Source of the DNA: Hymenobacter setariae
Lineage (GTDB): Bacteria; Bacteroidota; Bacteroidia; Cytophagales; Hymenobacteraceae
Direction: 5' to 3'
NCBI RefSeq assembly: GCF_007713685.1
Contig: NZ_VMRJ01000007.1
Coordinates: forward strand, 198,969-230,968
DNA length: 32,000 nt
Made by a program: the position numbers and the translations under genes. Below are positions 45-25,342 of this stretch, piece by piece. How positions within the stretch are numbered: the first letter of the stretch is position 1; each line of letters starts with the position of its first letter. The notes below the pieces were generated by a model. The model ran no database searches. It saw nothing but the letters and a program-made list of their open reading frames with translations, and was not told the DNA's origin.

Positions 45-908
45 TTACAGCCGCACCAGTACATCGCGCACCTGCTCCATCAGCCACATGGGCGTGCTTG
101 TAGCTCCACAAATACCAACCGACTGCCCTGGCCCAAACCAAGAGGGACATATCTCGTCGGTTTTTGAAATAAAGTGCGTGCACGGATTGGTTTCCTTACA
201 CACCTGGTACAGCACCTTGCCATTAGAACTCTTCGTGCCCGATACAAAGACCACCTGGTCGAACTGCGCCGCAAAGCGCCGCAAGTCCAGGTCGCGGTTG
301 CTCACCTGCCGGCAAATGGTGTCGTGTGCCGTTACCGAGTGCCCGCGGCTTTCGAGCTCGGTCTTAATCGTGTAAAATGACTCCGTGCTCTTTGTCGTCT
401 GGCTATATAGCGTAATGTTGGCGGGCAGTTCGTGGTGCAGCAGCTCTTCTAGGTTCTCAAACACGATGGCTTCGCCACTGGTCTGCCCCAGCAAGCCGCG
501 CACCTCGGCGTGGCCGTGCTTGCCGTAGATGAATAATTTTTCGCGCCGGTCGAAGCTCGCCTTGATGCGGTTTTGCAGTTTCAGCACTACGGGGCAACTG
601 GCGTCAATCAGCGTCAGGTTGTTGACCAAAGCCTGCTGGTAGGTGCTGGGTGGCTCACCGTGCGCCCGAATCAGTACGGCCTCATCGCGCAATACAGCCA
701 GCTGCTCGTAGTCGATGATACGTAAGCCCTTGGCTTCTAGGCGCTGCACCTCCTCATCGTTGTGCACAATGTCGCCTAGGCAATACAAATAGCCCTGCTC
801 GTCGAGCAGGTCCTCGGCCATCTGAATGGCGTAAATCACGCCAAAGCAAAAGCCGGAGTTAGAATCGATGCGAACACTGAGGTGCAAACCGGACTGCATA
901 TCGCTCAA
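45..908 (-). CDS. ispH: 4-hydroxy-3-methylbut-2-enyl diphosphate reductase (IspH/LytB)
   Basis: The 287-aa ORF has typical IspH length. The N-terminus ...SGFCFGV..AI (first cluster Cys), HGEPP, the ASCP.V (second Cys) motif and the C-terminal SSN..L motif match the LytB family. Confidence 0.9.
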   Translation of the reverse strand: MSDMQSGLHLSVRIDSNSGFCFGVIYAIQMAEDLLDEQGYLYCLGDIVHNDEEVQRLEAKGLRIIDYEQLAVLRDEAVLIRAHGEPPSTYQQALVNNLTLIDASCPVVLKLQNRIKASFDRREKLFIYGKHGHAEVRGLLGQTSGEAIVFENLEELLHHELPANITLYSQTTKSTESFYTIKTELESRGHSVTAHDTICRQVSNRDLDLRRFAAQFDQVVFVSGTKSSNGKVLYQVCKETNPCTHFISKTDEICPSWFGPGQSVGICGATSTPMWLMEQVRDVLVRL

Positions 909-984
909 CTAACTAAAAAGGCCGGCCGAAGGTTGCTTTATTACGTTAGTAATTAGCCTTAAATCTAGGTCGCCCCTAGGTGTC

Positions 985-1578
985 TTAGCTACTTTTTACT
1001 TGCGACAGCTGCGCGGCCTGCGCTTCTGACACGTGCCCACGGTCTACCAGAAAGCCACGTACCGTGCGGAAGGCTTCATCATCGAGGCCCGAGCGCGGAT
1101 GTTGTAGAGCCGCCGCTACCAAAAACGCCTTGTCTTCGTCTACATGCTTGCTCAGCCCTAGGAAGGGCGGCAGATTGCTCTCAACCGAGAATCGGAGAAA
1201 ACGAATTTCTGCATTGGTAGGGTCCAGTGTCACAGCCTGCTCGAAGGTGCGGGCCGCCTGCTGCACATAAGTCAGCTTGTTGAGCATCGACGCGTCGCGC
1301 GCCTTAATAGCTTCAGAGGCAGCCTTGTATCCTAGCACCAATGCCTCCTGCCCTTTGTAACCGTGCAACAGGTCATAAAATTTTTCACCGGCCTCTTTAT
1401 TAGCGGCAGCTTGCTCGTAGTGGCGGCGCAAGGCAGCCGGATTGGAAGGCGACATGGGAAGCAGAATGAACGTTTGATGAGGCGCAAAACGCCTAGAAAT
1501 AGAATGTAGATGCTTATTATTCAAAGCGTTGCTAGTAACACCGAGCAGCAAAAAGGGAATAAGCAGCAATTTTCTCAT
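985..1578 (-). CDS. hypothetical secreted helical (TPR-like) protein
   Basis: The 197-aa ORF has an N-terminal signal peptide (MRKLLLIPFLLLGVTSNA) and an Ala/Leu-rich helical-repeat-like body. It lies between ispH and crtB on the same strand. No family was recognised. Confidence 0.6.
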   Translation of the reverse strand: MRKLLLIPFLLLGVTSNALNNKHLHSISRRFAPHQTFILLPMSPSNPAALRRHYEQAAANKEAGEKFYDLLHGYKGQEALVLGYKAASEAIKARDASMLNKLTYVQQAARTFEQAVTLDPTNAEIRFLRFSVESNLPPFLGLSKHVDEDKAFLVAAALQHPRSGLDDEAFRTVRGFLVDRGHVSEAQAAQLSQVKSS

Positions 1579-1668
1579 GGTCCCAAAGCTACATCACCGC
1601 TCACAGTAAGGTTCGGCAACGAGCTGGGATACACGCTTTTTTTAGTACTGCCGAGGTAGACCTAGATG

Positions 1669-2514
1669 CTACCCCACCAGCCGCAACCGATACCGCAGCC
1701 ATGAGCCGAGCAGTAACAGCAGCTTGGTATTATCGGGCAGGCGTACGCGCTCGGCCAGCACTTGGGCCGCTGGTGCCTGCCGCAGCTTATAAAATAGCTT
1801 GAGGTAATACACGTAGGCCAAGTGCACGCCCAGCCGCGCCGAGCGCGGCAACTGCTGAATGCCTACATAGGCCGCCTCAAAGTCGGCTCGGATGTCGGCC
1901 TCTATCGTCCGCTTGGTCTCATTGTCGAACTGCTCGTAGCGCAGCCCCGGGAAGTACACGCGCCCCCGGTCTTCGTAGTCCGAGCGGATATCGCGCAGAA
2001 AGTTGACCTTTTGAAAAGCGGCCCCTAGGCGCCTTGCGGGCTCACGCAACTGCTCAAACCGGGCTGGCTCTTGGTGGCAAAATACGCGCAGGCACATTAG
2101 GCCCACCACTTCGGCCGAGCCATAGATGTATTTTTCGTACAGCTCCTGGCGGTAGTTGCGGTCCTCTAGGTCCATCTCCATGCTGCGCAAAAACGCATCG
2201 ATGAACTCGTGGTCAATGCCGTACTCATTCACCGCCCATTGAAAGGCGTGCAGCACGGGGTTCAGGCTAAAGCCAGCAGCAATGGCCGCGTAGGTATCGT
2301 GCTCAAACGTGGCCAGCAGCGCCGCTTTGTCGTGGCTGTGGAAGGTGTCCACTATCTCATCGGCCCAGCGCACAAAGCCATAAATAGCATAGATAGCCCG
2401 GTGCAACTCCTTATCTAAGGTACGGATACCCAAGGAGAAGGACGTGCTATAGCGCCGCGTGATGAGCTGGGCACACGCTAAACTAGTGTCAGTAAACAGC
2501 TGTTCGTGGTTCAC
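1669..2514 (-). CDS. crtB: phytoene synthase (squalene/phytoene synthase family)
   Basis: 281 aa. It has YSTSFSLGIR, the first Asp-rich region FVRWADEIVD and a later acidic segment (NFLRDIRSDYEDRGRVYFP). It lies directly downstream of crtI. Confidence 0.9.
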   Translation of the reverse strand: MNHEQLFTDTSLACAQLITRRYSTSFSLGIRTLDKELHRAIYAIYGFVRWADEIVDTFHSHDKAALLATFEHDTYAAIAAGFSLNPVLHAFQWAVNEYGIDHEFIDAFLRSMEMDLEDRNYRQELYEKYIYGSAEVVGLMCLRVFCHQEPARFEQLREPARRLGAAFQKVNFLRDIRSDYEDRGRVYFPGLRYEQFDNETKRTIEADIRADFEAAYVGIQQLPRSARLGVHLAYVYYLKLFYKLRQAPAAQVLAERVRLPDNTKLLLLLGSWLRYRLRLVG

Positions 2515-2616
2515 GGATGAGGACTAAATATGCCGCCAAAAGTACAAGAACGGCTATTTTCTCGCTACTTACTTTGCTTGCGGACCAATAGTTCTGGTTA
2601 TTGCCAACCTAGGGCG

Positions 2617-4086
2617 CTACTTTATTTCCTTTAGCACTTCACCTGCTACTACCTGGCCCGATATCAGGGAAGGCGGCACGCCCGGCCCCGGCACCGTAAG
2701 CTGGCCGGTAAAGTACAGGTTATTGACCTTCTTGCTTTTGAGCGTTGGCTTCAAGATAGCCGTCTGTTTCAACGTGTTAGCCAATCCGTAGGCGTTGCCT
2801 TTGAAAGAGTGATAATCGGCTACAAAGTCGCGGTGGGCATAGCTGCGCTTGTACACCACATGCTCGCGAATGGGGTGGCCGCAATGCTTTTCGAGCCGGT
2901 CCATTAGCAAATTATAATATTTCTCGCGTGTGGCCTCAGGGTCATCGAGGTCCGGCGCCACCGGAATAAGCAGGAACAAGTTTTCCTGGCCAGCGGGCGC
3001 CACCGTGGAGTCAGTCTTGCTGGGTACCGAGGCGTAGAACAGCGGCCGGCTGGGCCACTGCGGCGCCTCGTATATCTCGTGCGCGTGCTGCGAAAAATCT
3101 TCGTCAAAGAAGAGATTGTGATGCAGCAGGTTATCCAGCGGGCGATTCACACCTAGGTAGAACAGCAGCGACGAAGGCGCCATCGTGCGCGAGTCCCAGT
3201 ACGCCGGCGAGTAATGACGATATTCTGGCGCCAGCACTTGCTGCTCTATGTGCTGGTAGTCGGCCCCGGCCACCACGGCATCGGCCGGCCAAAAGCCGGT
3301 AGCCGTGCGCACACCAGTGGTGCGGCCCTGGGTTACCACTATCTCCTGCACCTCTTGGTTGTACTCGATTTTCACGCCTAGCTCCTCGGCCACCGCCACC
3401 ATGCCACGCACTATCTGGTGCATGCCGCCCTTGGGATACCAGGTACCTAGGGCCAGGTCGGCGTAGTTCATGAGTGAGTACAGCGCCGGCGTGTTCTCGG
3501 GCGTAGCGCCCAAGAACAATACCGGAAACTCAATGAGCTTGAGCAGCTTGGGGTGGCTAAAGAACTTGCGGGCGTGCTTGGCCATGCTTTGCAGCAGGTC
3601 GAGTCGCACCGCGCCCTTCACTATTTCCCAGTCCACAAACTCCAGCACAGAGCGGCTAGGCAAGTGCACAAATTTGTTGATGCCTACCTCGTATTTATAC
3701 GCCGCCTGGGCCAAGAATTCATCGAGCCGCGCCGCGCTGCCGGGCTCTAGCTCCTCAAACAGCTGCCGCAGCTGCGGCATGCCCGCCGGTATACCTAGGG
3801 TGTCCTTGTCGCCAAAAATGACCTGATACGATGGGTCGAGCCGCACTAGCTCATAATAGTCTGATACCTTTTTGCCGAACTGCTTAAAGTAGTCCTCAAA
3901 CACGCCCGGCATCCAGTACCAGCTCGGGCCCATGTCAAACGTAAACCTCTCGGCCTCAAACACCCGGGCTCGGCCGCCCGGCCCGGCGTTTTTTTCGAGC
4001 AGTGTGACTTGCCACCCGGCCCGAGCCAGAAAAGAGGCCGCCGATAAACCGGCAAAGCCGGCACCTATTACTATCGCCTGGGGCAC
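2617..4086 (-). CDS. crtI: phytoene desaturase (CrtI type)
   Basis: 489 aa. The N-terminal Rossmann fold is IVIGAGFAGLSAA..LLEKN.GPGGRA. The C-terminal FAD motif is LYFTGQLTVPGPGVPPSLISGQ. Length and layout are typical of bacterial CrtI. Confidence 0.9.
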   Translation of the reverse strand: MPQAIVIGAGFAGLSAASFLARAGWQVTLLEKNAGPGGRARVFEAERFTFDMGPSWYWMPGVFEDYFKQFGKKVSDYYELVRLDPSYQVIFGDKDTLGIPAGMPQLRQLFEELEPGSAARLDEFLAQAAYKYEVGINKFVHLPSRSVLEFVDWEIVKGAVRLDLLQSMAKHARKFFSHPKLLKLIEFPVLFLGATPENTPALYSLMNYADLALGTWYPKGGMHQIVRGMVAVAEELGVKIEYNQEVQEIVVTQGRTTGVRTATGFWPADAVVAGADYQHIEQQVLAPEYRHYSPAYWDSRTMAPSSLLFYLGVNRPLDNLLHHNLFFDEDFSQHAHEIYEAPQWPSRPLFYASVPSKTDSTVAPAGQENLFLLIPVAPDLDDPEATREKYYNLLMDRLEKHCGHPIREHVVYKRSYAHRDFVADYHSFKGNAYGLANTLKQTAILKPTLKSKKVNNLYFTGQLTVPGPGVPPSLISGQVVAGEVLKEIK

Positions 4087-4167
4087 TTTTTAGTGATTAG
4101 TGGTTAGGTAGTAGTGATTTCACAATCAGTTATCAAGCACTAATAACTAACCATTAATCACTAAAAA
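4087..4167. promoter_or_regulatory. AT-rich inverted repeat in the crtI upstream region (candidate operator/promoter)
   Basis: tttttagtgattagtggttag (4087-4107) and ctaaccattaatcactaaaaa (4147-4167) are reverse complements with one mismatch. tagtgatt is also directly repeated at 4091 and 4112. The element sits between the sigma-gene terminator and the crtI start. Confidence 0.35.
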
Positions 4168-4204
4168 CGAGAGCCGCGCCTTCCGAACTGGCGGAAGGCG
4201 CGGC
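4163..4204 (-). terminator. rho-independent terminator after the sigma factor gene
   Basis: A 13-bp GC-rich stem (gccgcgccttccg at 4173-4185 with cggaaggcgcggc at 4192-4204) is followed on the minus strand by ctcgttttt. Confidence 0.55.
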
Positions 4205-4232
4205 CCTTTACAACGCAAAACGCGGCGGCAAG

Positions 4233-4793
4233 TTAGTCTTGCTCCGGCTCATCAAGAAGTACGGCTCCGGCGCGGTCGGCCCCAGCAGGGGCATACACGT
4301 GCAGAGCAGCTTTTAAGTCCTTGCGGGCGATGTGAATACGATTCTTCACAGTGCCAATCGGGATTTGCAGCTTCTCCGCAATCTCTAGGTACTTGTAGCC
4401 GATATAGTACATCATAAACGGCGTGCGGTAATCCGAGCCTAGGCTGGCAATGGCCTCGTTGATGTCGCGCACCACGAAATCGGTCGTTGCCCCGTTGTGC
4501 GTGATGTAGTTCTCGTCGGTATTGAAGTACTGGAAATACTCAGTCGAATCGATGTTCGAGCTGCGCTTGGTAATCTTGTTATAGTTGTTAATGAAGGTGT
4601 TGCGCATGATGGTGTACAACCATGCCTTCAAATTGGTACCAGCCTTAAATTTATCTTTGTTAAGCAGCGCTTTGAGTAGCGTTTCCTGGACTAAGTCCTT
4701 GGCATCGTCAGCGTCGCGGGTGAGGTTCATCGCCACGGGGCGGAGCGATGAAGATATTTTCTGCACTTGGGAAGTGAATTCCAGAGAAGTCAT
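4233..4793 (-). CDS. ECF-type RNA polymerase sigma-70 family factor
   Basis: Region 2 is DLVQETLLKALLNKDKF....LKAWLYTIMRNTFIN. Region 4 HTH is YLEIAEKLQIPIGTVKNRIHIARKDL. The ORF extends to 4838, but the Met at 4793 (MTSLEF...) gives a family-typical length. Confidence 0.85.
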   Translation of the reverse strand: MTSLEFTSQVQKISSSLRPVAMNLTRDADDAKDLVQETLLKALLNKDKFKAGTNLKAWLYTIMRNTFINNYNKITKRSSNIDSTEYFQYFNTDENYITHNGATTDFVVRDINEAIASLGSDYRTPFMMYYIGYKYLEIAEKLQIPIGTVKNRIHIARKDLKAALHVYAPAGADRAGAVLLDEPEQD

Positions 4794-4946
4794 ATTGTTG
4801 AAGGGTTCGTAGCAGAATCTTAAACAAAGGTAGACCACAAGTGAGAAAAACGGCTCGATAGCAGCAGTTTTTTTTGAATACCTGCGCCAACCCGCGTAGC
4901 CCCGCCCGATTACGCAAATAAGAGACGCTTAGGTCGTGGTCTTGCT

Positions 4947-5867
4947 TTACTTTTCTGTTAACTGCGCTTCAACTACTTGATTTATAACGGGAATTAAATC
5001 ACGAAATTCGTGTAGGCATGCCATTGGCAAGCAGCCCTCGGGTAGCTGTTTGGCTTGTACCGCCAGTGTCCCGAATAATAGTAGCGTAGCATCGGGGTAC
5101 TGCTTGCGCAGCTCGTCGGCATAGTTGTTTAACTGAGCACGAGCCGGCGTAGTGGTAAGCACGGTAGCCAGCACGGTGGGCTGGAAAGTCCGCGCCGCCG
5201 CTATGATGTCGGGCAGCGGCAGGTTGGGCCCTAGATACAGCACTTGCTGGCCGCGGGCCCGCAGGGCGTAGTTCATGAAGAGCAAGGCCAGCTCTTGCCA
5301 CTCGCCCTCAGGCAGGAAAAGCAGCCAGCGGGGTGCATCGGCTTGGCTGAGCGGAATCAGGGGCAAAGCATCGGCCGAGGCCATTAGCTCTTGGCGCAGC
5401 AGTTGCGCCACTAGGCGCTCTTGAGCCACGCTCAGTGAGCCTTCCTTCCACGACACACTCAGGCGCTGTAGCAGGGGGTAGCCGAGCCGCAGCAGGGCGT
5501 CTTCAGGGCCAAGCTGCTCGATGGCTTCATCGAAAAGGCGGTGCAGGCGGGGCTCGTCGAGGTCGAGTGTAGCGCCCAGCATGGCATTGAGGCGGGCAAA
5601 ATCGGCGGGCTGAACTTCGTTGCAAAGCGACAAGGCAGCGGTTTGGCACTCCTCTTCGCTTAGGCGCACCACCTGCGAAATGCGCTGCCCACGCGCGCAC
5701 AGTGCCGCTACGTTGAGCAGGCGGCGCAAGTCAGCCTCCCCATAGGTGCGGATATTGGTAGTAGTACGGCTGGGGCTCAGCAAGTTGTAGCGTTGCTCCC
5801 AGATGCGAATAGTATGAGCTTTGACTCCAGAGAGTTGCTCTAAATCGCTGATAGAATAACGAGCCAC
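4947..5867 (-). CDS. MerR-family transcriptional regulator with a CarH/LitR-like C-terminal B12-binding-like domain (canonical His ligands absent)
   Basis: The N-terminal MerR HTH is YSISDLEQLSGVKAHTIRIWEQRY. The C-terminus has a four-helix-bundle-like segment with W-x9-E-R, then a Rossmann-like segment LFLPEGEWQELALLF..RARGQQVLYLGPNLPLPDII resembling the cobalamin-binding domain. Confidence 0.85.
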   Translation of the reverse strand: MARYSISDLEQLSGVKAHTIRIWEQRYNLLSPSRTTTNIRTYGEADLRRLLNVAALCARGQRISQVVRLSEEECQTAALSLCNEVQPADFARLNAMLGATLDLDEPRLHRLFDEAIEQLGPEDALLRLGYPLLQRLSVSWKEGSLSVAQERLVAQLLRQELMASADALPLIPLSQADAPRWLLFLPEGEWQELALLFMNYALRARGQQVLYLGPNLPLPDIIAAARTFQPTVLATVLTTTPARAQLNNYADELRKQYPDATLLLFGTLAVQAKQLPEGCLPMACLHEFRDLIPVINQVVEAQLTEK

Positions 5868-16576: not shown

Positions 16577-16658
16577 GCCTGGATGGCGGAACCGGTAGAC
16601 GCGATGGTCTCAAACACCATTACCGCAAGGTGTGCCGGTTCGACTCCGGCTCCAGGTA
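16577..16658 (+). tRNA. tRNA-Leu (anticodon CAA)
   Basis: Manual cloverleaf fold: acceptor GCCTGGA/TCCAGGT (G1-U72 wobble), D arm GCGGAACCGGTAGACGC, anticodon stem ATGGT/ACCAT with loop CTCAAAC, a long variable arm, and T arm GCCGG-TTCGACT-CCGGC. The discriminator is A and CCA is not encoded. Confidence 0.9.
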
Positions 16659-17250: not shown

Positions 17251-18801
17251 CTACTTACTGGTCATGAGTGCGGCCATCGTCTCGATGCCATCCCAGAGGT
17301 TACCTAGGCGAATGTTCTCGTTTTCGGCGTGCTGGTTGTTGTCGTAGTTGGCCACAGGCACGGTGAGCGTAGCGGCGCCCAGCTCCTGCTTGAACACGTA
17401 GAGTGGCAGGCTACCGCCCGAGGTGGGCAACAGCACAATGGGCTGCGCTACGGTCGATTGTACGGCCTGCACTACACTGCGCGCTACGGGCGCGTCCATG
17501 GGGGTGCGCTGGGCATTGTAGCCGGTTTCGGGCGCCACGCGCACTAGGCGCGGGTGCTGAGCGCGCTCGGCATCAGTGGGCTCGGCGCGGGTCACGAAGT
17601 AGCCTTGGTGCTGAATATGACGCACTACTTTCTCGATTTGGCGCTGATAATCATTACCTAGCACCAGGCGCAGGTCGAGCATGGCCTCGGCGGTCGTCGG
17701 GATGACGTTGGCCGCCTGCGCGCCCACGTTGGCGCTGCGCAGGCCATTGATATTTAGCGAGGGCTGGTTTAGAAGCGCTACCAGCGACTGGCCCGCGCCA
17801 TCGGGCTGGGCAAAGCCCAGCTCGCGCTGCAAGTTGGCCTCCACGGCGGGCACGCGTCGCACGGCCTCTAGCTCAGCCGCAGTGAGGGGCACTACATCAT
17901 CGTAGAAGCCGGCGATGGTGACGCGGCCAGTGCTGTCTTTCATAGAGGCCAGTAGCTGGGCCAGCCCTAGGGCGGGATTGGGTGCCCAGTTGCCGTAGTG
18001 ACCACTGTGCAGCGGGCGCTTGGGGCCATACACGGTGAGACCGACGTTGACATCGCCACGGGCGCCGAACACCACCTGCTTGCGGCCCGACTGGTGCACC
18101 GGACCATCGCAGATTATCCAGAGGTCCGACTTCAATAGGTCGCGGTGCTGGTGCAGCAGCTCGGCCAAGTGCGGCGAGCCTTTTTCCTCTTCGCCTTCGA
18201 AGAAGAATTTGAGATTAACAGTGGGCTTGATGCGGCGCTGGGCTAGGGCTTGGTAAGCTGCCAGAATGCTCATTACCCCAGCCTTATCGTCGGAACTGCC
18301 GCGGGCGTAGAGACGCCAGTCGGGATTGAGTGGGGTGCCGGGCGCGGGAAGTGGCAGCAGTTGGCCGCCGCTGGCCAATGAACCGCTGGCCAACACGGGC
18401 TTAAACGGGCTCAGGCCGGGCGCCCACTGGGCGGGGTTCACGGGCTGGCCATCGTAATGGGCGTAGAACACCAGCGTGCGAGTGGCGCCCGGCACGCGCA
18501 CCTCGCCAAACACAGCGGGCGGCACGCCGGGCGTGGTGGTCCGCAGCAATTGCACGTTGGCCAAGCCGCGCTGGCGCATCATGTCGGCGATGATAATGGC
18601 CGTGCGACGCAGCCCCGCGCTGTCGGCCGCCACGCTCGGAATGGCTAGCAGCCGCAGGTATTCGGCCAGAAGTTCGTGCTCGTGCTGCTGGCGGTACTGC
18701 CGCACCTGCTGCAAGATGGTAGCGGCCGGCACAGCTGCCAGCAAGAGCCCTAGGATAGTTACTACGCCGAGCAAACGGCCAAACGAGCAGGAGTGCTTCA
18801 T
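17251..18801 (-). CDS. M20 family metallopeptidase/dipeptidase (secreted)
   Basis: Contains AHYDGQP, RGSSDDKAG and FFFEGEEEKGS metal/catalytic motifs. A signal peptide starts at the Met at 18801 (MKHSCSFGRLLGVVTILGLLLAA). The 87 extra codons in the track read through a palindromic repeat. Confidence 0.85.
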   Translation of the reverse strand: MKHSCSFGRLLGVVTILGLLLAAVPAATILQQVRQYRQQHEHELLAEYLRLLAIPSVAADSAGLRRTAIIIADMMRQRGLANVQLLRTTTPGVPPAVFGEVRVPGATRTLVFYAHYDGQPVNPAQWAPGLSPFKPVLASGSLASGGQLLPLPAPGTPLNPDWRLYARGSSDDKAGVMSILAAYQALAQRRIKPTVNLKFFFEGEEEKGSPHLAELLHQHRDLLKSDLWIICDGPVHQSGRKQVVFGARGDVNVGLTVYGPKRPLHSGHYGNWAPNPALGLAQLLASMKDSTGRVTIAGFYDDVVPLTAAELEAVRRVPAVEANLQRELGFAQPDGAGQSLVALLNQPSLNINGLRSANVGAQAANVIPTTAEAMLDLRLVLGNDYQRQIEKVVRHIQHQGYFVTRAEPTDAERAQHPRLVRVAPETGYNAQRTPMDAPVARSVVQAVQSTVAQPIVLLPTSGGSLPLYVFKQELGAATLTVPVANYDNNQHAENENIRLGNLWDGIETMAALMTSK

Positions 18802-18868
18802 GCACCCAAGTAAGGCGATAGAAACCGAAAGGCAGTAGTGACTACATCTGTAGTCACTTGGCTGCTGT

Positions 18869-18980
18869 GTGACCCCACCCCCGGCCCCTCCCCTCCGGGA
18901 GAGGGGTGCCAACCGCAAATAGACGTTGGCAAACGTCAGGCACCCCTCTCCCGGAGGGGAGGGGCCGGGGGTGGGGTCAC
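18869..18980. repeat. GC-rich palindromic repeat element, copy 1 (REP/MITE-like)
   Basis: Perfect 42-nt inverted arms (gtgaccccacccccggcccctcccctccgggagaggggtgcc and its exact reverse complement) flank a 28-nt loop. A related copy lies at 27719-27825. Confidence 0.8.
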
Positions 18981-19127
18981 ACGTCCACCGAGCCAGGCCT
19001 ACACAAAATTCGAGACTTGCTTTAACCGCCAATAATTGACACCACCATTCACATTTTTTCACGTCATTTGGTGCTGGCTGGCGCGTGGGTTTTCAGCGGT
19101 TGGTTACGCACGCCCAGCATCCCTCCT

Positions 19128-20216
19128 ATGGCTTCATCTCGACTCGCGTTTTTCCTGCTTTGCTGGCTGGTGCTGCCCCTAGGTGGTCGGGCGCAGGCGG
19201 CGTACCCCACGCCGGTACCCGGCGATTTTACGCTGAATAATTTTCGCTTTGTGAGCGGCGAAACGCTGCCCGCGTTGCGCCAGCACTACACCACTGTTGG
19301 GCAACCTAAGCGCGATAAAGCCGGCCACGTTACCAACGCAGTGCTCATCATGCACGGCACCACGGGCGCGGGCACCAGCTTCTTGACCGACCTATTTGCC
19401 GGGCACTTGTTTGGGCCGGGGCAACCGCTGGATGCGGCCAAGTACTACGTCATCTTGCCCGATGCCATCGGCCACGGCAAGTCGAGCAAGCCCAGCAACG
19501 GGCTGCGCATGAAATTTCCGAAATACACCTACGACGACATGGTGATAGCCAACTATCGCCTGCTAACCGAGCACCTCGGCGTGGCCCATTTACGCCTGGT
19601 GATGGGCACCTCGATGGGCGGCATGGAAACCTGGGTATGGGGCTACACCTACCCCGGCTTTATGGATGCCCTGCTGCCCCTGGCCAGCCTGCCCGTGGAG
19701 ATAGCCGGCCGCAACCGCATGCTGCGCAAAATGGCCATCGACCTGATACAGATGGACCCCGCCTGGCAAGGCGGCAACTACACCACCCAGCCCAAAGTGG
19801 GCCTGGCCGGCGCTTCCTCCTCGATGATAGTGATGGGCAGCAGCCCCAAGCAAATGCAAAAGCTGGCGCCCACACGCGAGTTGGCCGAGGCCACCCTTGC
19901 CAAGACCGAAGCCAACTTCTACCGCACGCTCGACGCCAACGACTTTATCTACCAGTTCGACGCTTCACGCGATTACAACCCCGCCCCGCACCTAGGGAGC
20001 ATCAAGGCGCCGCTGTTTGCCATCAACTCAGCCGACGACCAGGTGAACCCGCCTGAGCTAGGTATTCTGGATGTCGAGATTAAGAAGGTATCCAAGGGCC
20101 GCTACATTTTGCTGCCCATCACGGACCTCACTACTGGGCACGGCACCCACTCCAACCCCGCCATTTGGGGCAGCTATTTGCAAGAATTGTTGGCCCTGAC
20201 CGATAAGCCGCAATAG
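19128..20216 (+). CDS. secreted alpha/beta hydrolase, homoserine O-acetyltransferase (MetX)-like fold
   Basis: The Met at 19128 gives a signal peptide (MASSRLAFFLLCWLVLPLGGRAQA). It has the HGTTG oxyanion region, the nucleophile elbow GTSMGG and a C-terminal GH. Confidence 0.8.
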   Translation: MASSRLAFFLLCWLVLPLGGRAQAAYPTPVPGDFTLNNFRFVSGETLPALRQHYTTVGQPKRDKAGHVTNAVLIMHGTTGAGTSFLTDLFAGHLFGPGQPLDAAKYYVILPDAIGHGKSSKPSNGLRMKFPKYTYDDMVIANYRLLTEHLGVAHLRLVMGTSMGGMETWVWGYTYPGFMDALLPLASLPVEIAGRNRMLRKMAIDLIQMDPAWQGGNYTTQPKVGLAGASSSMIVMGSSPKQMQKLAPTRELAEATLAKTEANFYRTLDANDFIYQFDASRDYNPAPHLGSIKAPLFAINSADDQVNPPELGILDVEIKKVSKGRYILLPITDLTTGHGTHSNPAIWGSYLQELLALTDKPQ

Positions 20217-20250: not shown

Positions 20251-20287
20251 GCCCCACCCTTTTCAGCGAAAGGGGGTGGGGCTTTTT
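20251..20287 (+). terminator. rho-independent terminator
   Basis: The 9-bp stem gccccaccc (20251-20259) with gggtggggc (20274-20282) is followed by tttttgg. Confidence 0.6.
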
Positions 20288-20428
20288 GGTAGCTCTCGGG
20301 TGCGCAGGAAACTGGCGCCAACTCCTTCGTAAGCACGGGTTTTTATTTCTTAGGCATATACAGTATCACTATTTCTAAAATTAGCTATACCTTACAAATG
20401 AAAATATATCTTCTCATAATCCCACCCA

Positions 20429-22408
20429 TTGCTTATGGCCACTTCGACTTCTACTCCTAAGATAAAAGTGGCCGTGCTGGGCGGCGGTGTGGCCGGCATG
20501 AGCGCCGCTCACGAGCTGGCCGAGCGAGGCTTTGCGGTGGATGTGTACGAGCGGCAGCCGGTGTACGTGGGCGGCAAAGCGCGCTCGGTAGACGTGCCCT
20601 TTGACAAGCTGCTGCACCTAGGCGAAACTGCCCTGCCCCCGGCGCCCAGCCCCGGCGACGCGCGCCGCCCCGACCTGCCGGGCGAGCACGGGTTTCGCTT
20701 TTTTCCGGGCTTTTACAAGCACATCACCGACACCATGAAGCGCATTCCCTACGGTACTAATCCGCAAGGGGTGTTCGACAATTTGGTGTCGTCGCAGCGG
20801 GTACTGCTGGCGCGGTTTGGCCAGGCACCCTTGCCAGCGCTGGTCAATTTTCCGAAGACCTGCGCCGACCTCGAAACCATTGTGCAGGACCTGACCCAGG
20901 CGCACACTGGGCTCACGGCCGCCGACAAAAAGCTGTTTGCCCGCAACCTGTGGCAGATTCTGACTTCTAGCTACGAGCGCCGCCAGCAGGTGTACGAGCG
21001 CCAAAGCTGGTGGGACTTCATGCAAACCGACGCCGAGCGCCACCGCGACTCGCTGCCGCCCTTGGCACCACTGCGCCCCGTCGCGCCCGCCGACGGCAAC
21101 CTAGGAGCGCCGGCCAGTACCAAGCCCGGCGTGCCTTTTCCCTACGAAGTGTACTGTGTGGGCGGCCTCACGCGCTCGCTGGTGGCGGCCCAGCCCAAGC
21201 TGATGAGCGTGAAAACCGGGGGCGACATTTTGCTGCAATTGCTGCTGCTCATCGGTGACCCCACGGCCCACACCGACCGCATTCTCAACGGACCTACCAA
21301 TGAGGTATGGCTTAAGCCCTGGCTGGACTACCTGACCACCCTAGGCGTGCGCTACCACCACCACCGCTACGCCACGCGCTTCGAGTGCGACCCCGATACG
21401 CGCCGCATCACGGCCGCCTTTGTGCGCCCCGACGTGGGCGATGCCGAAGAGCGCATCGAGGCCGATTACTACGTGGCCGCCGTACCCGTGGAGCAGATGG
21501 CCCAGGTGCTCAAAAACAGCCCCGACCTGCTGAAGATAGACGCCACGCTGGGCTTTATCGAGAAGCTGGCGGCCCCCGGCACCAAGGCCCTGAACTGGAT
21601 GAACGGCATCCAGTTTTACCTTAACCAAGACGTGCCGCTGGCGCCGGGCCACATCATTTGTCTCGACTCGCCGTGGGCGGTCACGGCTATTTCGCAGGCG
21701 CAATTTTGGCCGCAGCACCCGCTCAGCAGCTACGGCAACGGTGAGGTGAAGGGCCTGCTGTCGGTGGACGTCAGCAACTGGTTTGAGAAGGGCCTGAATC
21801 ATAAATCGGCCGAGAAGTGCACCCTGCCCGAAATAGTGCGCGAGGTGTGGGCCGAGCTCAAGAAAAGCCTGACGCAGGCCAACGGCGAGTGCCTGCTCAC
21901 CGACGAGATGTGCGTGGGCTGCTACGTCGATTCGGACATCGAGACCGGCACTAACCAACCGCTGCCACCGCCCATCAAAAGCCCCTTCGTGGCCGACCAC
22001 AACACTGAGCCGCTGCTCGTGAACACGGCCAACTCGTGGAGCCTGCGCCCCGAGAGCTTTTGCGGCGTCGAAAACCTATTTCTGGCTTCCGATTACGTGC
22101 GCACCAACACCGACCTGGCTACTATGGAAGGCGCCAACGAGGCCGCCCGCCGCGCTGTCAATGGCATTATCGCGGCCAGCGGCAGCGGGGCGCCGTTCTG
22201 CCAGATTTGGCAGCTGCACGAGCCCGACGTGCTGGCCGTGCTGCGCTGGCGCGACCGCCGGCGCTTTGCCAAGGGCCTGCCCTGGAGCGATGCCCTAGGT
22301 GACCTCCCCACCCGCCTGTTGCACGAGGCCAACTACTGGTGGCAGCACCTGCGCCGCCCGGCGCGGCGCCCGGCCGCCGCCGTTGCCAGCACCCTTTCGC
22401 CCGCTTAA
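20429..22408 (+). CDS. FAD-dependent oxidoreductase of the amine oxidase / phytoene desaturase (CrtI-PDS) superfamily, 659 aa
   Basis: The N-terminal motif is KVAVLGGGVAGMSAAHELAERGFAVDVYE....VGGKA. The C-terminal FAD motif is LFLASDYVRTNTDLATMEGANEAARRAVNGI. A long central insertion includes a Pro-rich low-complexity stretch. Confidence 0.85.
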   Translation: MLMATSTSTPKIKVAVLGGGVAGMSAAHELAERGFAVDVYERQPVYVGGKARSVDVPFDKLLHLGETALPPAPSPGDARRPDLPGEHGFRFFPGFYKHITDTMKRIPYGTNPQGVFDNLVSSQRVLLARFGQAPLPALVNFPKTCADLETIVQDLTQAHTGLTAADKKLFARNLWQILTSSYERRQQVYERQSWWDFMQTDAERHRDSLPPLAPLRPVAPADGNLGAPASTKPGVPFPYEVYCVGGLTRSLVAAQPKLMSVKTGGDILLQLLLLIGDPTAHTDRILNGPTNEVWLKPWLDYLTTLGVRYHHHRYATRFECDPDTRRITAAFVRPDVGDAEERIEADYYVAAVPVEQMAQVLKNSPDLLKIDATLGFIEKLAAPGTKALNWMNGIQFYLNQDVPLAPGHIICLDSPWAVTAISQAQFWPQHPLSSYGNGEVKGLLSVDVSNWFEKGLNHKSAEKCTLPEIVREVWAELKKSLTQANGECLLTDEMCVGCYVDSDIETGTNQPLPPPIKSPFVADHNTEPLLVNTANSWSLRPESFCGVENLFLASDYVRTNTDLATMEGANEAARRAVNGIIAASGSGAPFCQIWQLHEPDVLAVLRWRDRRRFAKGLPWSDALGDLPTRLLHEANYWWQHLRRPARRPAAAVASTLSPA

Positions 22409-22420
22409 TCTTCGCCCGCC

Positions 22421-23098
22421 GTGCTTGCCGTTATCCTCAATCTCAAAGATTATACGCCCTTCGAGCACGTGTGCTTTGCGGGGGGCTGCCTGCTGTGGGT
22501 GGTCGTGTACGTGTTCACTATTCGCGGCATCCGCACCCGGCAGTTTGTCGATATTCCTATCATTTCGGGCTGCGCCAATATTGCCTGGGAGTTCTTGTGG
22601 AGCTGGGTGTTTCACACCGACATGGGCGAGCTGTACGTGTGGGGCTACCGAGCCTGGTTTTTTCTGGATTGCTACATCGTGTACGGGTTTTTCCGCTACG
22701 GCTACAAGCAGATTCTCATTGCGCCGCTGGCCCGGCACGCGCGGCTGGTGCTGGCCTGCGGCATCGTGGGCTGGGGCGTGATGCTGTACTTCTACATCAA
22801 GCTCTACGATGCGCCCATCAGCCACATGGGCGCCTATTCGGGCTACATTCTCAGCATCTTGATGGGCATGCTCTACCTCACGCTTTTCTTGAGTATGAAC
22901 AACCTAGGGCTGTTTTCCTACACCTCAGTGTGGTGCGCGGGGCTCGGCAATTTACTCGTGACGCTGTTCTGCTTTTCGCATTTCACCGACTGGTTTTTGC
23001 TGTCGATGTGCGCCTTCACCACGCTGCTCAATGCGGCCTACATTGCCATCTTCACCCTGCAACGCAGCCAGCCCGCCGCGCAGCTAGCCACCGTATGA
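22421..23098 (+). CDS. polytopic membrane protein with a Pyr4/PaxB-like transmembrane terpene cyclase signature (putative)
   Basis: It has a GTG start 12 nt after the upstream stop. It is 225 aa with about 7 hydrophobic segments. IPIISGCANIAWEFLWS resembles, as I recall them, the conserved C-x-N-[IF]-A-W-E segment containing the catalytic Glu of fungal Pyr4/PaxB membrane cyclases. Confidence 0.6.
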   Translation: MLAVILNLKDYTPFEHVCFAGGCLLWVVVYVFTIRGIRTRQFVDIPIISGCANIAWEFLWSWVFHTDMGELYVWGYRAWFFLDCYIVYGFFRYGYKQILIAPLARHARLVLACGIVGWGVMLYFYIKLYDAPISHMGAYSGYILSILMGMLYLTLFLSMNNLGLFSYTSVWCAGLGNLLVTLFCFSHFTDWFLLSMCAFTTLLNAAYIAIFTLQRSQPAAQLATV

Positions 23099-24498
23099 GC
23101 GAGCGCACCCGCTGGGAAAAATACCTGTGGCACCCCCTAGGGTTTAAGGGGCTGAGCGAAGAGGAGTTTAAGCAACGCACCACGGCGGTGCGGCTCACGC
23201 TGTTTACGCTGCTGGGGGCCCTGCCCTACTCCATGCTCTATGCGTGGCTGGGGTTTCCGCTGGCGCCCATCGCTACGTTTATCTACGTAGGGTTTTCGGC
23301 GCTCAATCTGCTGGTGCTGTTCATCACCAAGCGCTACACGTTTTTCACCACTACGCAGCTGGTTTTTATTATCCTGAACCCCATTATGGCGCACGTGGCC
23401 ATCGGGGGGTTTATCGACAGCAGCGGCATCATTTTGTCGGCTATTCTGAGTCCGCTGGGGGCGTTGCTATTCACCAATTACCGCACGGCGCGCATCTATT
23501 TTTTCCTGTTTGTAGCCGATGTGGTGCTGGCTGGCGTCTGGGACTGGCAACACCTCGACCAGCAACCTAGGCTGCCTAAGGAGGTGCGCACTATCAGCTT
23601 CGTATCCAACATGCTCATCATCTGCTTGGTGGTGTATTTGCTGATTGAGGACACGCTGAAGAAGAAAGAGCAGGCCCAACAGCAACTCCAAAAATCGCTC
23701 GACCACCTACAAGCCACGCAGGCCCAGCTGGTGCAGCGCGAAAAAATGGCGAGCCTGGGCGAACTCACGGCCGGCATCGCGCACGAAATTCAAAACCCGC
23801 TCAACTTCGTCAACAACTTCGCCGAGGTCAGCGCCGAGCTGCTCGACGAGCTAGAAGAAGAGCAGCAGAAGCCCCAGCGCGACGCCTCCCTGGAAGCCGA
23901 GCTGCTGGCCGACGTGCAGCAGAACCTGCACAAAATCAGCCAGCACGGGCAGCGGGCGGGCAGCATTGTGCGGGCCATGCTCGAGCATAGCCGCAGCAGC
24001 ACCGGCGAGCGCCAGCCCACCGACCTCAACGCCCTCGCCGACGAATACCTGCGCCTAGCCTACCACGGCCTGCGGGCCAAAGACAAACTTTTCAACGCTA
24101 CCCTCGCCCTCGACTTGGCGCCCGACCTGCCCCTGGTATTAGGCGCCGGGGCCGACCTAGGACGCGTGCTGCTCAATCTATTCAACAATGCTTTCTACGC
24201 CGTGCACCAGCGCCAGCAGGCCGGCGAGCCCGACTACGCGCCCACCGTGGGCGTGGCCACGCGGGCCGTGGGCAACCGCGTAGAAGTGCGCGTACACGAC
24301 AACGGCGCGGGCATTCCGGCCAACATACAGGCCAAAATATTCCAGCCCTTTTTCACCACTAAGCCTACGGGCGAGGGCACCGGCCTGGGCCTTTCGCTCA
24401 CTCACGACATTATTGTAAACGGCCACGGCGGCACGCTTACGGTCGAAAGTCAAGTGGGGGTGGGTACTACGTTTGCCATTACGCTGCCAGGCACCTAG
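23095..24498 (+). CDS. sensor histidine kinase with a membrane-embedded multi-TM N-terminal sensor
   Basis: Its start ATG overlaps the upstream TGA (ATGA at 23095-23098). It has about six TM segments and a coiled coil (KKKEQAQQQLQKSLDHLQATQAQLVQ). The H-box is AGIAHEIQNPLNF. The N box is LLNLFNNAFYA, and the G boxes are DNGAGI and GEGTGLGLS. Confidence 0.85.
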   Translation: MSERTRWEKYLWHPLGFKGLSEEEFKQRTTAVRLTLFTLLGALPYSMLYAWLGFPLAPIATFIYVGFSALNLLVLFITKRYTFFTTTQLVFIILNPIMAHVAIGGFIDSSGIILSAILSPLGALLFTNYRTARIYFFLFVADVVLAGVWDWQHLDQQPRLPKEVRTISFVSNMLIICLVVYLLIEDTLKKKEQAQQQLQKSLDHLQATQAQLVQREKMASLGELTAGIAHEIQNPLNFVNNFAEVSAELLDELEEEQQKPQRDASLEAELLADVQQNLHKISQHGQRAGSIVRAMLEHSRSSTGERQPTDLNALADEYLRLAYHGLRAKDKLFNATLALDLAPDLPLVLGAGADLGRVLLNLFNNAFYAVHQRQQAGEPDYAPTVGVATRAVGNRVEVRVHDNGAGIPANIQAKIFQPFFTTKPTGEGTGLGLSLTHDIIVNGHGGTLTVESQVGVGTTFAITLPGT

Positions 24499-24520: not shown

Positions 24521-25342
24521 ATGCGCCGCTTCAGATACCTTGTTTTCTTGCTACTCTACACGCTGCTGGCAGCGGGGCAGGCCGTGCCCTACGGCCATAA
24601 CCCAGCCGCGGGCCACTACCAGGCCGTACGTGGCGTGCGGCTTTACTACGAAGAGTACGGCGCGGGGCCGCCGCTGCTACTCATTCACGGCAACGGCGGC
24701 AGCATCCAGGACTTCAAGCAGAACATTCCCTATTTCGCCAAGCACTACCGCGTGCTGGCGGTGGACAGCCGCGCCCATGGCCAGTCAGTAGACCCCGGCG
24801 ACTCGCTGAGCTTCGAGATGATGGCCGACGACTTTGCGGCCCTACTCACCAGCCTGCGCCTCGACTCGGCCTACGTGCTGGGCTGGAGTGATGGCGGCAT
24901 TAATGCCGTGGTGCTGGCCCTGCGCCACCCTAAGAAAGTGAAACGCCTGGCGGCCACCGGCGCCAATTTCTCACCCGACTCCACCGCCCTCACGCCCGCG
25001 CTGTGGCGCCAGCAGCAGCGCGGCTACCAAGAAAACAAAGGCAAAACGCTGACCGACCTAAAGTTAAAAAACGACTGGAAGGTGTTCACGCTCGACGTAT
25101 TCCAGCCCAACATGCCGCTGCCTAGGTTGCGCCAAGTGGCAGCGCCGGCCTTCATCATCGCCGGCGACCGCGACGTGATAACGCTAGAGCATACGGTGGC
25201 CATCTACCGCCACCTGCGCCGCGCCTGGCTCTGGATAGTACCCGATAGCGGCCACGCCACCTTGCAAGAACACGCCGACGAATTCAACCGGAAAGTGGAC
25301 GCTTTCTTTCGGGCAAAGCGTATTTCAAACGCTCCTCACTAA
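24521..25342 (+). CDS. secreted alpha/beta hydrolase
   Basis: It has a signal peptide, the LLLIHGNGGS oxyanion region, the nucleophile elbow GWSDGG, and C-terminal D...SGH. Confidence 0.85.
   Translation: MRRFRYLVFLLLYTLLAAGQAVPYGHNPAAGHYQAVRGVRLYYEEYGAGPPLLLIHGNGGSIQDFKQNIPYFAKHYRVLAVDSRAHGQSVDPGDSLSFEMMADDFAALLTSLRLDSAYVLGWSDGGINAVVLALRHPKKVKRLAATGANFSPDSTALTPALWRQQQRGYQENKGKTLTDLKLKNDWKVFTLDVFQPNMPLPRLRQVAAPAFIIAGDRDVITLEHTVAIYRHLRRAWLWIVPDSGHATLQEHADEFNRKVDAFFRAKRISNAPH

Follow-up and report, generated by a model that had tools for sequence, protein, structure and literature searches.

A Pyr4-like transmembrane terpene cyclase homologue in Hymenobacter is encoded between a flavoenzyme and a sensor kinase and may work in isoprenoid-linked signalling

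Work on Pyr4-like transmembrane terpene cyclases (TMTCs) has, to our knowledge, dealt almost entirely with their part in the making of natural products by fungi and actinobacteria. Bacterial and fungal members of the family have seven helices (PMC13307353, Supporting Information), a conserved Glu has been proposed as their catalytic (Brønsted) acid (PMC13307353, Supporting Information Fig. S1), and E63 and D218 have been named as active-site residues of Pyr4 itself (PMC6486709). In a 2026 survey in the Journal of the American Chemical Society, a profile built from 62 known Pyr4-like cyclases retrieved 1,107 bacterial candidates from nr, of which 264 with terpenoid genes nearby were kept (69% from Actinomycetota); its Table S2 counts 37 Bacteroidota members, including 2 from Hymenobacteraceae, and characterises none of them (PMC13307353). 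The presence of the family in bacteria, Bacteroidota included, is already known. Here we describe a family member encoded in a 32,000-nucleotide stretch of the Hymenobacter setariae genome (assembly GCF_007713685.1, contig NZ_VMRJ01000007.1, positions 198,969 to 230,968 of the forward strand; hereafter the window), where its gene lies between those of a flavoenzyme and a membrane histidine kinase. What is new is the link to signal transduction, which is conserved across this TMTC branch. All the evidence is computational, and from it we judge it fairly probable that the branch works in an enzyme-coupled module for isoprenoid sensing and signal transduction, and not in a natural-product cluster.

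The window TMTC is a protein of 225 amino acids with seven transmembrane (TM) helices, encoded on the + strand at 22421..23098; the assignment draws on its open reading frame, Pfam, an AlphaFold2 model and an alignment of homologues. Translation starts at a GTG codon, and the resulting N-terminus agrees with the starts of homologues (e.g., 'MLGVLLNLNDY' in P0005). The Pfam model PF25129 (Pyr4-like transmembrane terpene cyclases; Pyr4-TMTC) recognises the sequence with an E-value of 1e-13, and its gathering cutoff of 27 bits is well exceeded at 51.9 bits; residues 15-188 align with profile positions 17-188 of 227. No NCBIfam model matches the protein. Among 5.8 billion proteins searched, 152 relatives were retrieved; the PF25129 match is precomputed in all 120 of them that are listed. 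Among the matches listed, the nearest relatives are from Hymenobacter (80-94% identity), and homologues from Spirosoma, Dyadobacter and Fibrella already carry the NCBI label 'transmembrane-type terpene cyclase'. The AlphaFold2 model, built from a 46-sequence alignment, has high confidence (pLDDT 92.2, pTM 0.85) and shows seven long helices, so that both size and topology fall within the range of the family (~220-250 amino acids, seven TM helices). A sequence search of the PDB with the window TMTC gave no match, and no solved structure of the Pyr4 family was found there; the nearest solved folds are the seven-helix bundles of SWEET transporters and the KDEL receptor (TM-score ~0.57). Judging from the profile match and the predicted fold, the window protein is a genuine Pyr4-like TMTC. 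The gene is under purifying selection between Hymenobacter orthologues (ratio of nonsynonymous to synonymous substitution rates, dN/dS, 0.13-0.15), which indicates that it is still functional.

An earlier reading of the letters alone (the original prediction) had assigned this open reading frame to the Pyr4/PaxB family, as a protein with about seven TM helices, from the motif IPIISGCANIAWEFLWS (residues 45-61), and had pointed to TTLLNAAY (residues 198-205) as the possible place of the second acid. Both strings are present as quoted, and the assignment and the topology are borne out by the Pfam score, the seven helices of the model and the names of NCBI homologues. The accompanying remark that very few bacterial members are known has to be given up: besides the 1,107 candidates in nr and the 37 tabulated from Bacteroidota (PMC13307353), our family-wide HMMER search (sequences clustered at 50% identity, E <= 1e-3) finds 1,114 bacterial clusters.

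Several features indicate that the flavoenzyme, TMTC and kinase genes form a tight three-gene operon that is co-transcribed and probably translationally coupled. The flavoenzyme gene (20435..22408, +) ends 12 nucleotides before the TMTC start codon, and the TMTC stop codon overlaps the ATG of the kinase gene (ATGA). A hairpin resembling an intrinsic terminator (20251..20282, +; a 13-bp stem with 8 G-C pairs, followed by a T-run) ends the upstream alpha/beta-hydrolase gene and marks the 5' boundary of the operon, and a promoter-like site, recognised by consensus match only, lies in the AT-rich spacer just 5' of the flavoenzyme gene (20391..20420, +). Two alpha/beta-hydrolase genes (19068-20216 and 24521-25342) flank the operon, the downstream one beginning 22 nucleotides past the kinase stop codon with no terminator between. 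These hydrolases were considered as further parts of the module and set aside, as they are not conserved beside it even in its closest relatives (loci L001 and L002).

The first gene of the operon encodes an oxidoreductase dependent on flavin adenine dinucleotide (FAD), of 657 amino acids when read from the ATG at 20435 (an alternative TTG start is at 20429). It has the Pfam domains Amino_oxidase and NAD_binding_8, and it falls far short of the NCBIfam equivalog cutoffs for HpnE (67.7 against 283), ZDS (47.6 against 622) and PDS (37 against 569). When its profile was compared with the PDB, the best match was rice phytoene desaturase (PDS; 5mog, E = 3.9e-7), followed by oleate hydratase. Its AlphaFold2 model (pLDDT 80.9, pTM 0.86) has an amine-oxidase-type FAD fold with a PDS-like overall structure; 5mog is again the best match by Foldseek (E = 8.4e-19, TM-score 0.81 normalised to the target), and further matches are oleate hydratases, NicA2, a carotenoid desaturase and protoporphyrinogen oxidases. 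Its homologues go by differing names in the databases ('hydroxysqualene dehydroxylase', 'phytoene dehydrogenase', 'FAD-dependent oxidoreductase'). Profile scores and the predicted structure lead us to regard it as a new subfamily that would handle long hydrophobic chains, a distant PDS/HpnE-like relative within the amine oxidases. A CrtI-like flavoenzyme had been predicted next to the TMTC; the flavoenzyme is indeed adjacent, but it is closer to plant-type PDS and HpnE than to CrtI.

The third gene (23095..24498, +) encodes a membrane histidine kinase of 467 amino acids, in which both two-component kinase domains are present (HisKA, residues 221-303; HATPase_c, residues 353-465). They are preceded by a region of ~190 residues containing six TM helices (approximately residues 28-190, nucleotides ~23176-23664). 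This six-helix input domain has no Pfam match, a homologue search with it returned a single match, and a profile restricted to its TM segments (alignment A2) matched nothing in the PDB. The idea that it is a paralogue of the TMTC was dropped, given an hhalign probability of 0.4%. Conserved polar residues are few; G104 and A123 are invariant and K79 is nearly so. Across related loci the same domain carries three different outputs, namely HisKA/HATPase_c, a class III nucleotidyl cyclase and a SpoIIE/PP2C phosphatase, and the six-helix regions of all three types align with one another (alignment A2). It always stands directly after a TMTC gene (e.g., L004:8650-9294, L005:3700-4344 and L010:8667-9311; 23095-23700 in the window). 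Taken as a complete protein, the relative with a cyclase output aligns over residues 28-405 with Cya of Mycobacterium tuberculosis (7yzi). A single-domain receiver follows the kinase in some relatives (e.g., L073, with a Pfam Response_reg match), and L033 and L084 have a receiver-like match by blastp.

We then compared the window with 16 related loci from GTDB representative genomes (17 loci when the window is counted). The flavoenzyme gene is directly upstream of the TMTC gene in 14 of the 16; of the other two loci, one is cut at a contig end and one holds a fusion. A signalling gene follows the TMTC gene immediately, or is fused to it, in 17 of 17 loci. Its output varies among them: the six-helix domain is joined to HisKA/HATPase_c in the window and seven genome loci, to a class III nucleotidyl cyclase in four and to a SpoIIE/PP2C phosphatase in two, while a 1,690-amino-acid protein with Ser/Thr kinase, AAA16, GAF and cyclase domains follows in L014 and a HATPase_c protein in L015. 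In L016 a single open reading frame of 829 amino acids (L016:7827-10316) encodes the TMTC and HisKA-HATPase_c as one fused protein. Genes for a prenyltransferase (UbiA/ABBA), a P450, an FMO epoxidase or a scaffold enzyme are present neither around the TMTC gene in the window nor, within 8 kb of it, in any of the 16 loci. One of the loci, L001 (CAZZWL010000144.1), contains the whole module with 79-89% protein identity to the window; it is labelled as an uncultured Rhodanobacter metagenome-assembled genome and is probably mis-binned.

An independent scan of metagenomes added 80 loci, which were sorted by the partner of the TMTC: type F, with the flavoenzyme upstream (31 loci), and type M, with an adjacent MpaB/Lcp-type oxygenase (36 loci); the remaining 13, mostly truncated, have no detectable partner. 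Seventeen type-F loci have at least 900 nucleotides downstream of the TMTC gene and could be tested, and a signalling gene follows in 16 of them, 15 recognised by domain queries plus L073, where a HisKA_2 kinase and a response regulator lie downstream. In the seventeenth (L037:1519-4164), a TonB-dependent receptor (Plug and barrel) follows the TMTC instead of a sensor. In the type-M loci (L019, L021 and L043-L098), the oxygenase replaces the flavoenzyme, and there are often two tandem TMTC genes. A giant signalling protein of the Pkinase-AAA16-TPR-GAF(-cyclase) type adjoins the TMTC in 18 type-M loci. In one type-M locus a 7TMR-DISM sensor and SpoIIE lie downstream. Eight type-M loci also have an AhpC/1-Cys peroxiredoxin nearby. 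Enzymes of the MpaB/Lcp family split prenyl chains by oxidation (PMC6900556). By analogy with the known relatives of both partners, the PDS-like flavoenzyme and the MpaB/Lcp oxygenase, the substrate would be an isoprenoid; carotenoids, squalene-type chains and the menaquinone side chain are possible candidates.

Fusions join the TMTC to signalling outputs more directly. Among the top 150 representatives of the TMTC family, besides the fused open reading frame in L016, TMTC-HisKA-HATPase_c fusions were found in P0159, P0199 and P0267, a TMTC-GGDEF-EAL fusion in P0171, a TMTC-class III cyclase fusion in P0173 and a TMTC joined to PAS and a receiver in P0202; in P0198 the TMTC is fused to an MpaB/Lcp oxygenase. 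On NCBI contigs, P0159 and P0173 each prove to be one continuous gene. Where the TMTC is fused to signalling outputs, it lies at the N-terminus and is the only membrane domain, with both its Glu and its Asp retained. We have also observed that in P0159, P0171, P0173, P0181, P0199, P0202, P0267 and L016 a conserved soluble region of ~280 amino acids without a Pfam match (residues ~235-520) follows the TMTC, and then a coiled coil and the output. Two TMTC-TonB-receptor proteins, P0124 and P0252, were not counted as signalling fusions because they may be merged gene calls, a separate TonB-receptor gene being adjacent in L037. A canonical biosynthetic cluster also occurs within the same family (L020), containing genes for three P450s and for one UbiA prenyltransferase. 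Together with the signalling-linked loci, this cluster indicates that the family has two lifestyles, one biosynthetic and one linked to signalling, and the window TMTC belongs to the latter.

Gene order could in principle be conserved without a functional link: the kinase would then sense something else, and the flavoenzyme and TMTC would serve housekeeping lipid metabolism. The sample comes largely from one phylum, so that synteny could be inherited, and neither a response regulator nor target genes can be identified in the window. However, outputs have been exchanged repeatedly while adjacency was kept, start and stop codons overlap, direct fusions of TMTC and signalling domains have arisen independently, and in 18 loci of the type-M branch the TMTC adjoins Ser/Thr-kinase-AAA16-TPR-GAF proteins. 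We therefore consider a merely coincidental arrangement very improbable. The flavoenzyme, the signalling partners of variable output and the fusions elsewhere together argue for signalling rather than for the biosynthesis of a pigment or secondary metabolite.

The residues of the TMTC itself bear on what it does in such a module. The Glu of the catalytic type is E57 (codon 22589-22591), within N-x-x-W-E (CANIAWEF). It is kept in all 121 close homologues and in 135 of 137 diverse representatives of the family, confirming the predicted conservation of the Glu in the AWE motif. N53, W56, W60, R77 and D83 are likewise invariant in the 121 close homologues, 120 of which also have D130; among the 137 representatives, E57, D83 and D130 are largely conserved and R77 is variable. 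The Pfam register (residue 57 corresponds approximately to profile position 59) and the literature on the conserved Glu suggest that E57 is the counterpart of Pyr4 E63. Position 204 (codon 23030-23032) is Asn in the window TMTC, as had been predicted along with the possibility of a different chemistry. Of the 121 close homologues, 111 have Asp at this position and 10 have Asn, the latter being exactly the sequences of the Hymenobacter clade; family-wide, Asp is found in 124 of 137 representatives. N204 would be the counterpart of Pyr4 D218, to judge from the Glu-Asp spacing and the Pfam envelope coordinates. This spacing is 155 in Pyr4, 157-158 in P0159, P0173 and P0181, which have a longer loop, and 146-148 in P0124 and P0198; in the window TMTC a shorter loop reduces the distance from the Glu to position 204 to 147.

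The Hymenobacter clade alone has six fixed substitutions (N145S, S149G, R158S, K173A, L186S and D204N), at sites that are nearly invariant in the 111 other homologues, and three of them together neutralise charged residues (R158, K173 and D204). From the alignment, this joint loss of charge looks like a remodelled charge network and not like decay. The change of this network with D204N may mean altered chemistry in Hymenobacter or a shift to pure ligand binding. The second possibility leads to an account in which the TMTC-like protein has lost its enzymatic function and serves as a seven-helix receptor or carrier. It would bind a hydrophobic ligand of endogenous or environmental origin and signal to the kinase by its conformation, with the flavoenzyme conditioning or degrading the ligand. 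The loss of the second acid and of the charges at R158 and K173 would fit this account, as would the TMTC being the sole membrane input module of the fusion proteins and the resemblance of its fold to SWEET transporters and the KDEL receptor. On the other hand, the invariance of E57 and of the buried polar residues N53, W56, R77 and D83 and the near-invariance of D130 suit an active site no less than a binding site, and the steady pairing with an oxidoreductase for isoprenoid-like chains suggests a two-step chemical conversion. A TMTC that has given up catalysis altogether seems unlikely to us, and the roles of receptor and enzyme are not mutually exclusive.

An enzyme-coupled signalling module, which we prefer, might operate as follows. 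The flavoenzyme, as a monotopic PDS-like protein, would act on a long isoprenoid chain in the membrane. The seven-helix TMTC would bind the modified chain and probably protonate or cyclise it via Glu57, retaining catalysis despite D204N. The six-helix domain of the kinase would then read the product of the TMTC within the membrane or, alternatively, the occupancy or turnover of the TMTC, as in sensing through an accessory protein ('flux' sensing). In a broader and more tentative form of the proposal, to which we give somewhat less than even credence, the Pyr4-type domain would be the input of a widespread form of bacterial signalling. A PDS-like flavoenzyme or MpaB/Lcp oxygenase would work with the membrane cyclase to turn a membrane isoprenoid into a cyclic terpenoid, or to report its flux, and this signal would directly control histidine kinases, nucleotide cyclases, PP2C phosphatases and cyclic di-GMP enzymes. 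Such a pathway, whether it uses a terpenoid as second signal or senses the state of lipids, would be without a described precedent, and Hymenobacter would have remodelled it by neutralising the charge network of the active site. We have found no report linking Pyr4-like TMTCs to signalling in the searchable literature.

Several points weigh against the signalling proposal. No response regulator was found beside the kinase among the open reading frames scanned in the window, and the 16 genome loci have no prenyltransferase or terpene synthase gene within 8 kb. The loci are not phylogenetically independent, so that the conservation of gene order is partly due to vertical inheritance. As the second acid is Asn, the window TMTC may be non-catalytic or chemically different, and the equivalence of N204 with D218 is itself drawn from spacing and envelope coordinates.

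The window also contains carotenoid genes, on which the original prediction had drawn in proposing a terpenoid or carotenoid cyclisation or modification step. On the - strand lie ispH (45-908), an unannotated open reading frame of 197 amino acids (985-1578), crtB (1669-2514), crtI (2617-4086), a gene for an extracytoplasmic function (ECF) sigma factor (4233-4838) and one for a regulator of the CarH/LitR type with MerR and B12-binding domains (4947-5867). The region 45-5867 (-) resembles a light-responsive carotenoid regulon. The crtB/crtI pair (1669-4086) lies 16.3 kb upstream of the flavoenzyme gene, in agreement with the predicted 16 kb, but a functional link is not supported: no crtB or crtI homologue occurs within 8 kb of the TMTC gene in the 16 related genome loci, and the promoter region of the module has no motif in common with the crt intergenic regions. 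A link between module and crt cluster was rejected on these grounds, and the closeness of the two is no evidence for a carotenoid substrate.

These observations bear on the view that the TMTC is a biosynthetic cyclase. Together with the flavoenzyme it would produce or alter some carotenoid or terpenoid as an end product, whether a pigment, a membrane lipid or a secondary metabolite, and the kinase would be a mere neighbour or a local regulator. The Pyr4 family is one of cyclases whose characterised members are all biosynthetic (PMC13307353), it includes the canonical cluster in L020 (three P450s and UbiA), the flavoenzyme resembles the carotenoid enzyme PDS, and a crtB/crtI cluster is present in the same window. 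But the 16 genome loci lack crt, prenyltransferase, terpene synthase and P450 genes within 8 kb, the promoter region of the module has no motif in common with the crt cluster, and the flavoenzyme is far under the equivalog cutoffs of HpnE, PDS and ZDS. Moreover, a pathway regulator is not expected to hold one input domain while swapping kinase, cyclase and phosphatase outputs, nor to be fused to the cyclase domain. We regard a purely biosynthetic role as improbable. The observation behind the original prediction is thus confirmed and its biosynthetic interpretation only partly supported, since a stand-alone modification step does not account for conserved partners that consist of the flavoenzyme and a signalling protein of variable output, or for domain fusions to such outputs.

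Elsewhere in the window, the only Rfam match is a tRNA gene (16577-16658). An open reading frame for an M20 peptidase (17251-19062, -) has an unusually long N-terminal extension. The peptide string 'CDPTPGPSPPGEGC...APLSRRGGAGGGVT' appears in translations of both strands at ~18840-19035 (18838-19035), which suggests an intergenic inverted repeat or palindromic element and not a coding sequence.

If the signalling proposal is correct for a major bacterial branch, the Pyr4-like cyclase family would have a second role, in signalling. It has long been asked which ligands bind to the hexahelical membrane domains of class III cyclases and kinases, and the module would offer a source of ligand for such orphan domains. 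The three-gene system is tractable in culturable Bacteroidota (Hymenobacter, Spirosoma and Dyadobacter). For genome mining, matches to the family of the Pfam or antiSMASH kind in Bacteroidota should not be taken as meroterpenoid clusters.

Compared with the fungal Pyr4/PaxB-type cyclases (e.g., Pyr4, PaxB, AndB, AscF and Trt1), the window TMTC belongs to the same Pfam family, PF25129, with a similar length (~225-245 amino acids), seven TM helices and the common Glu in N-x-x-W-E near residue 60. The Asp of the last helix, conserved in most relatives, is replaced by Asn in the window TMTC, which has no FMO or P450 epoxidase, prenyltransferase or polyketide synthase (PKS) gene nearby and is instead partnered by a PDS-like flavoenzyme and a sensor kinase. 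The characterised bacterial enzymes XiaE/XiaH (xiamycin), DmtA1/2 (DmtA1: drimentines), TylF (tolypodiol), GroF (gromomycins) and ZigF (zigralones) are of the same family, and their conserved Glu is the proposed Brønsted acid; unlike the window TMTC, they are found in biosynthetic clusters of Actinomycetota and Cyanobacteriota together with prenyltransferases and P450s (PMC13307353). The flavoenzyme has the same FAD-binding amine-oxidase fold as plant PDS (5mog) and HpnE, with PDS as its best structural match, but its identity with PDS is ~16% and it is longer by ~150-190 residues, having insertions and, at the C-terminus, a helical extension that is conserved.

On the side of the kinase, a reading of the TMTC's working state would have its parallel in intramembrane-sensing histidine kinases that depend on an accessory membrane protein, such as BceS with BceAB and LiaS with LiaF (10.1101/2020.02.28.969956, PMC11009047, PMC3543457). 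The window kinase likewise has a compact, all-membrane input, and its gene is tied to that of a membrane protein which would act on a lipid-linked substrate; the partner in the window is a terpene cyclase homologue and not an ATP-binding cassette (ABC) transporter. A reading of the TMTC product would instead resemble the hexahelical membrane domains of class III adenylyl cyclases, which have been reported to be lipid receptors (PMC11606603, PMC12505454). The proteins of ~410 amino acids with six TM helices and a class III cyclase that follow the TMTC in many related loci match the architecture of one such enzyme, Rv1625c/Cya of M. tuberculosis. We know of no pairing of Rv1625c with an enzyme that makes its ligand. 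What the two systems would have in common is a membrane domain that reads a lipid signal, with the difference that in the window the six-helix domain drives a histidine kinase.

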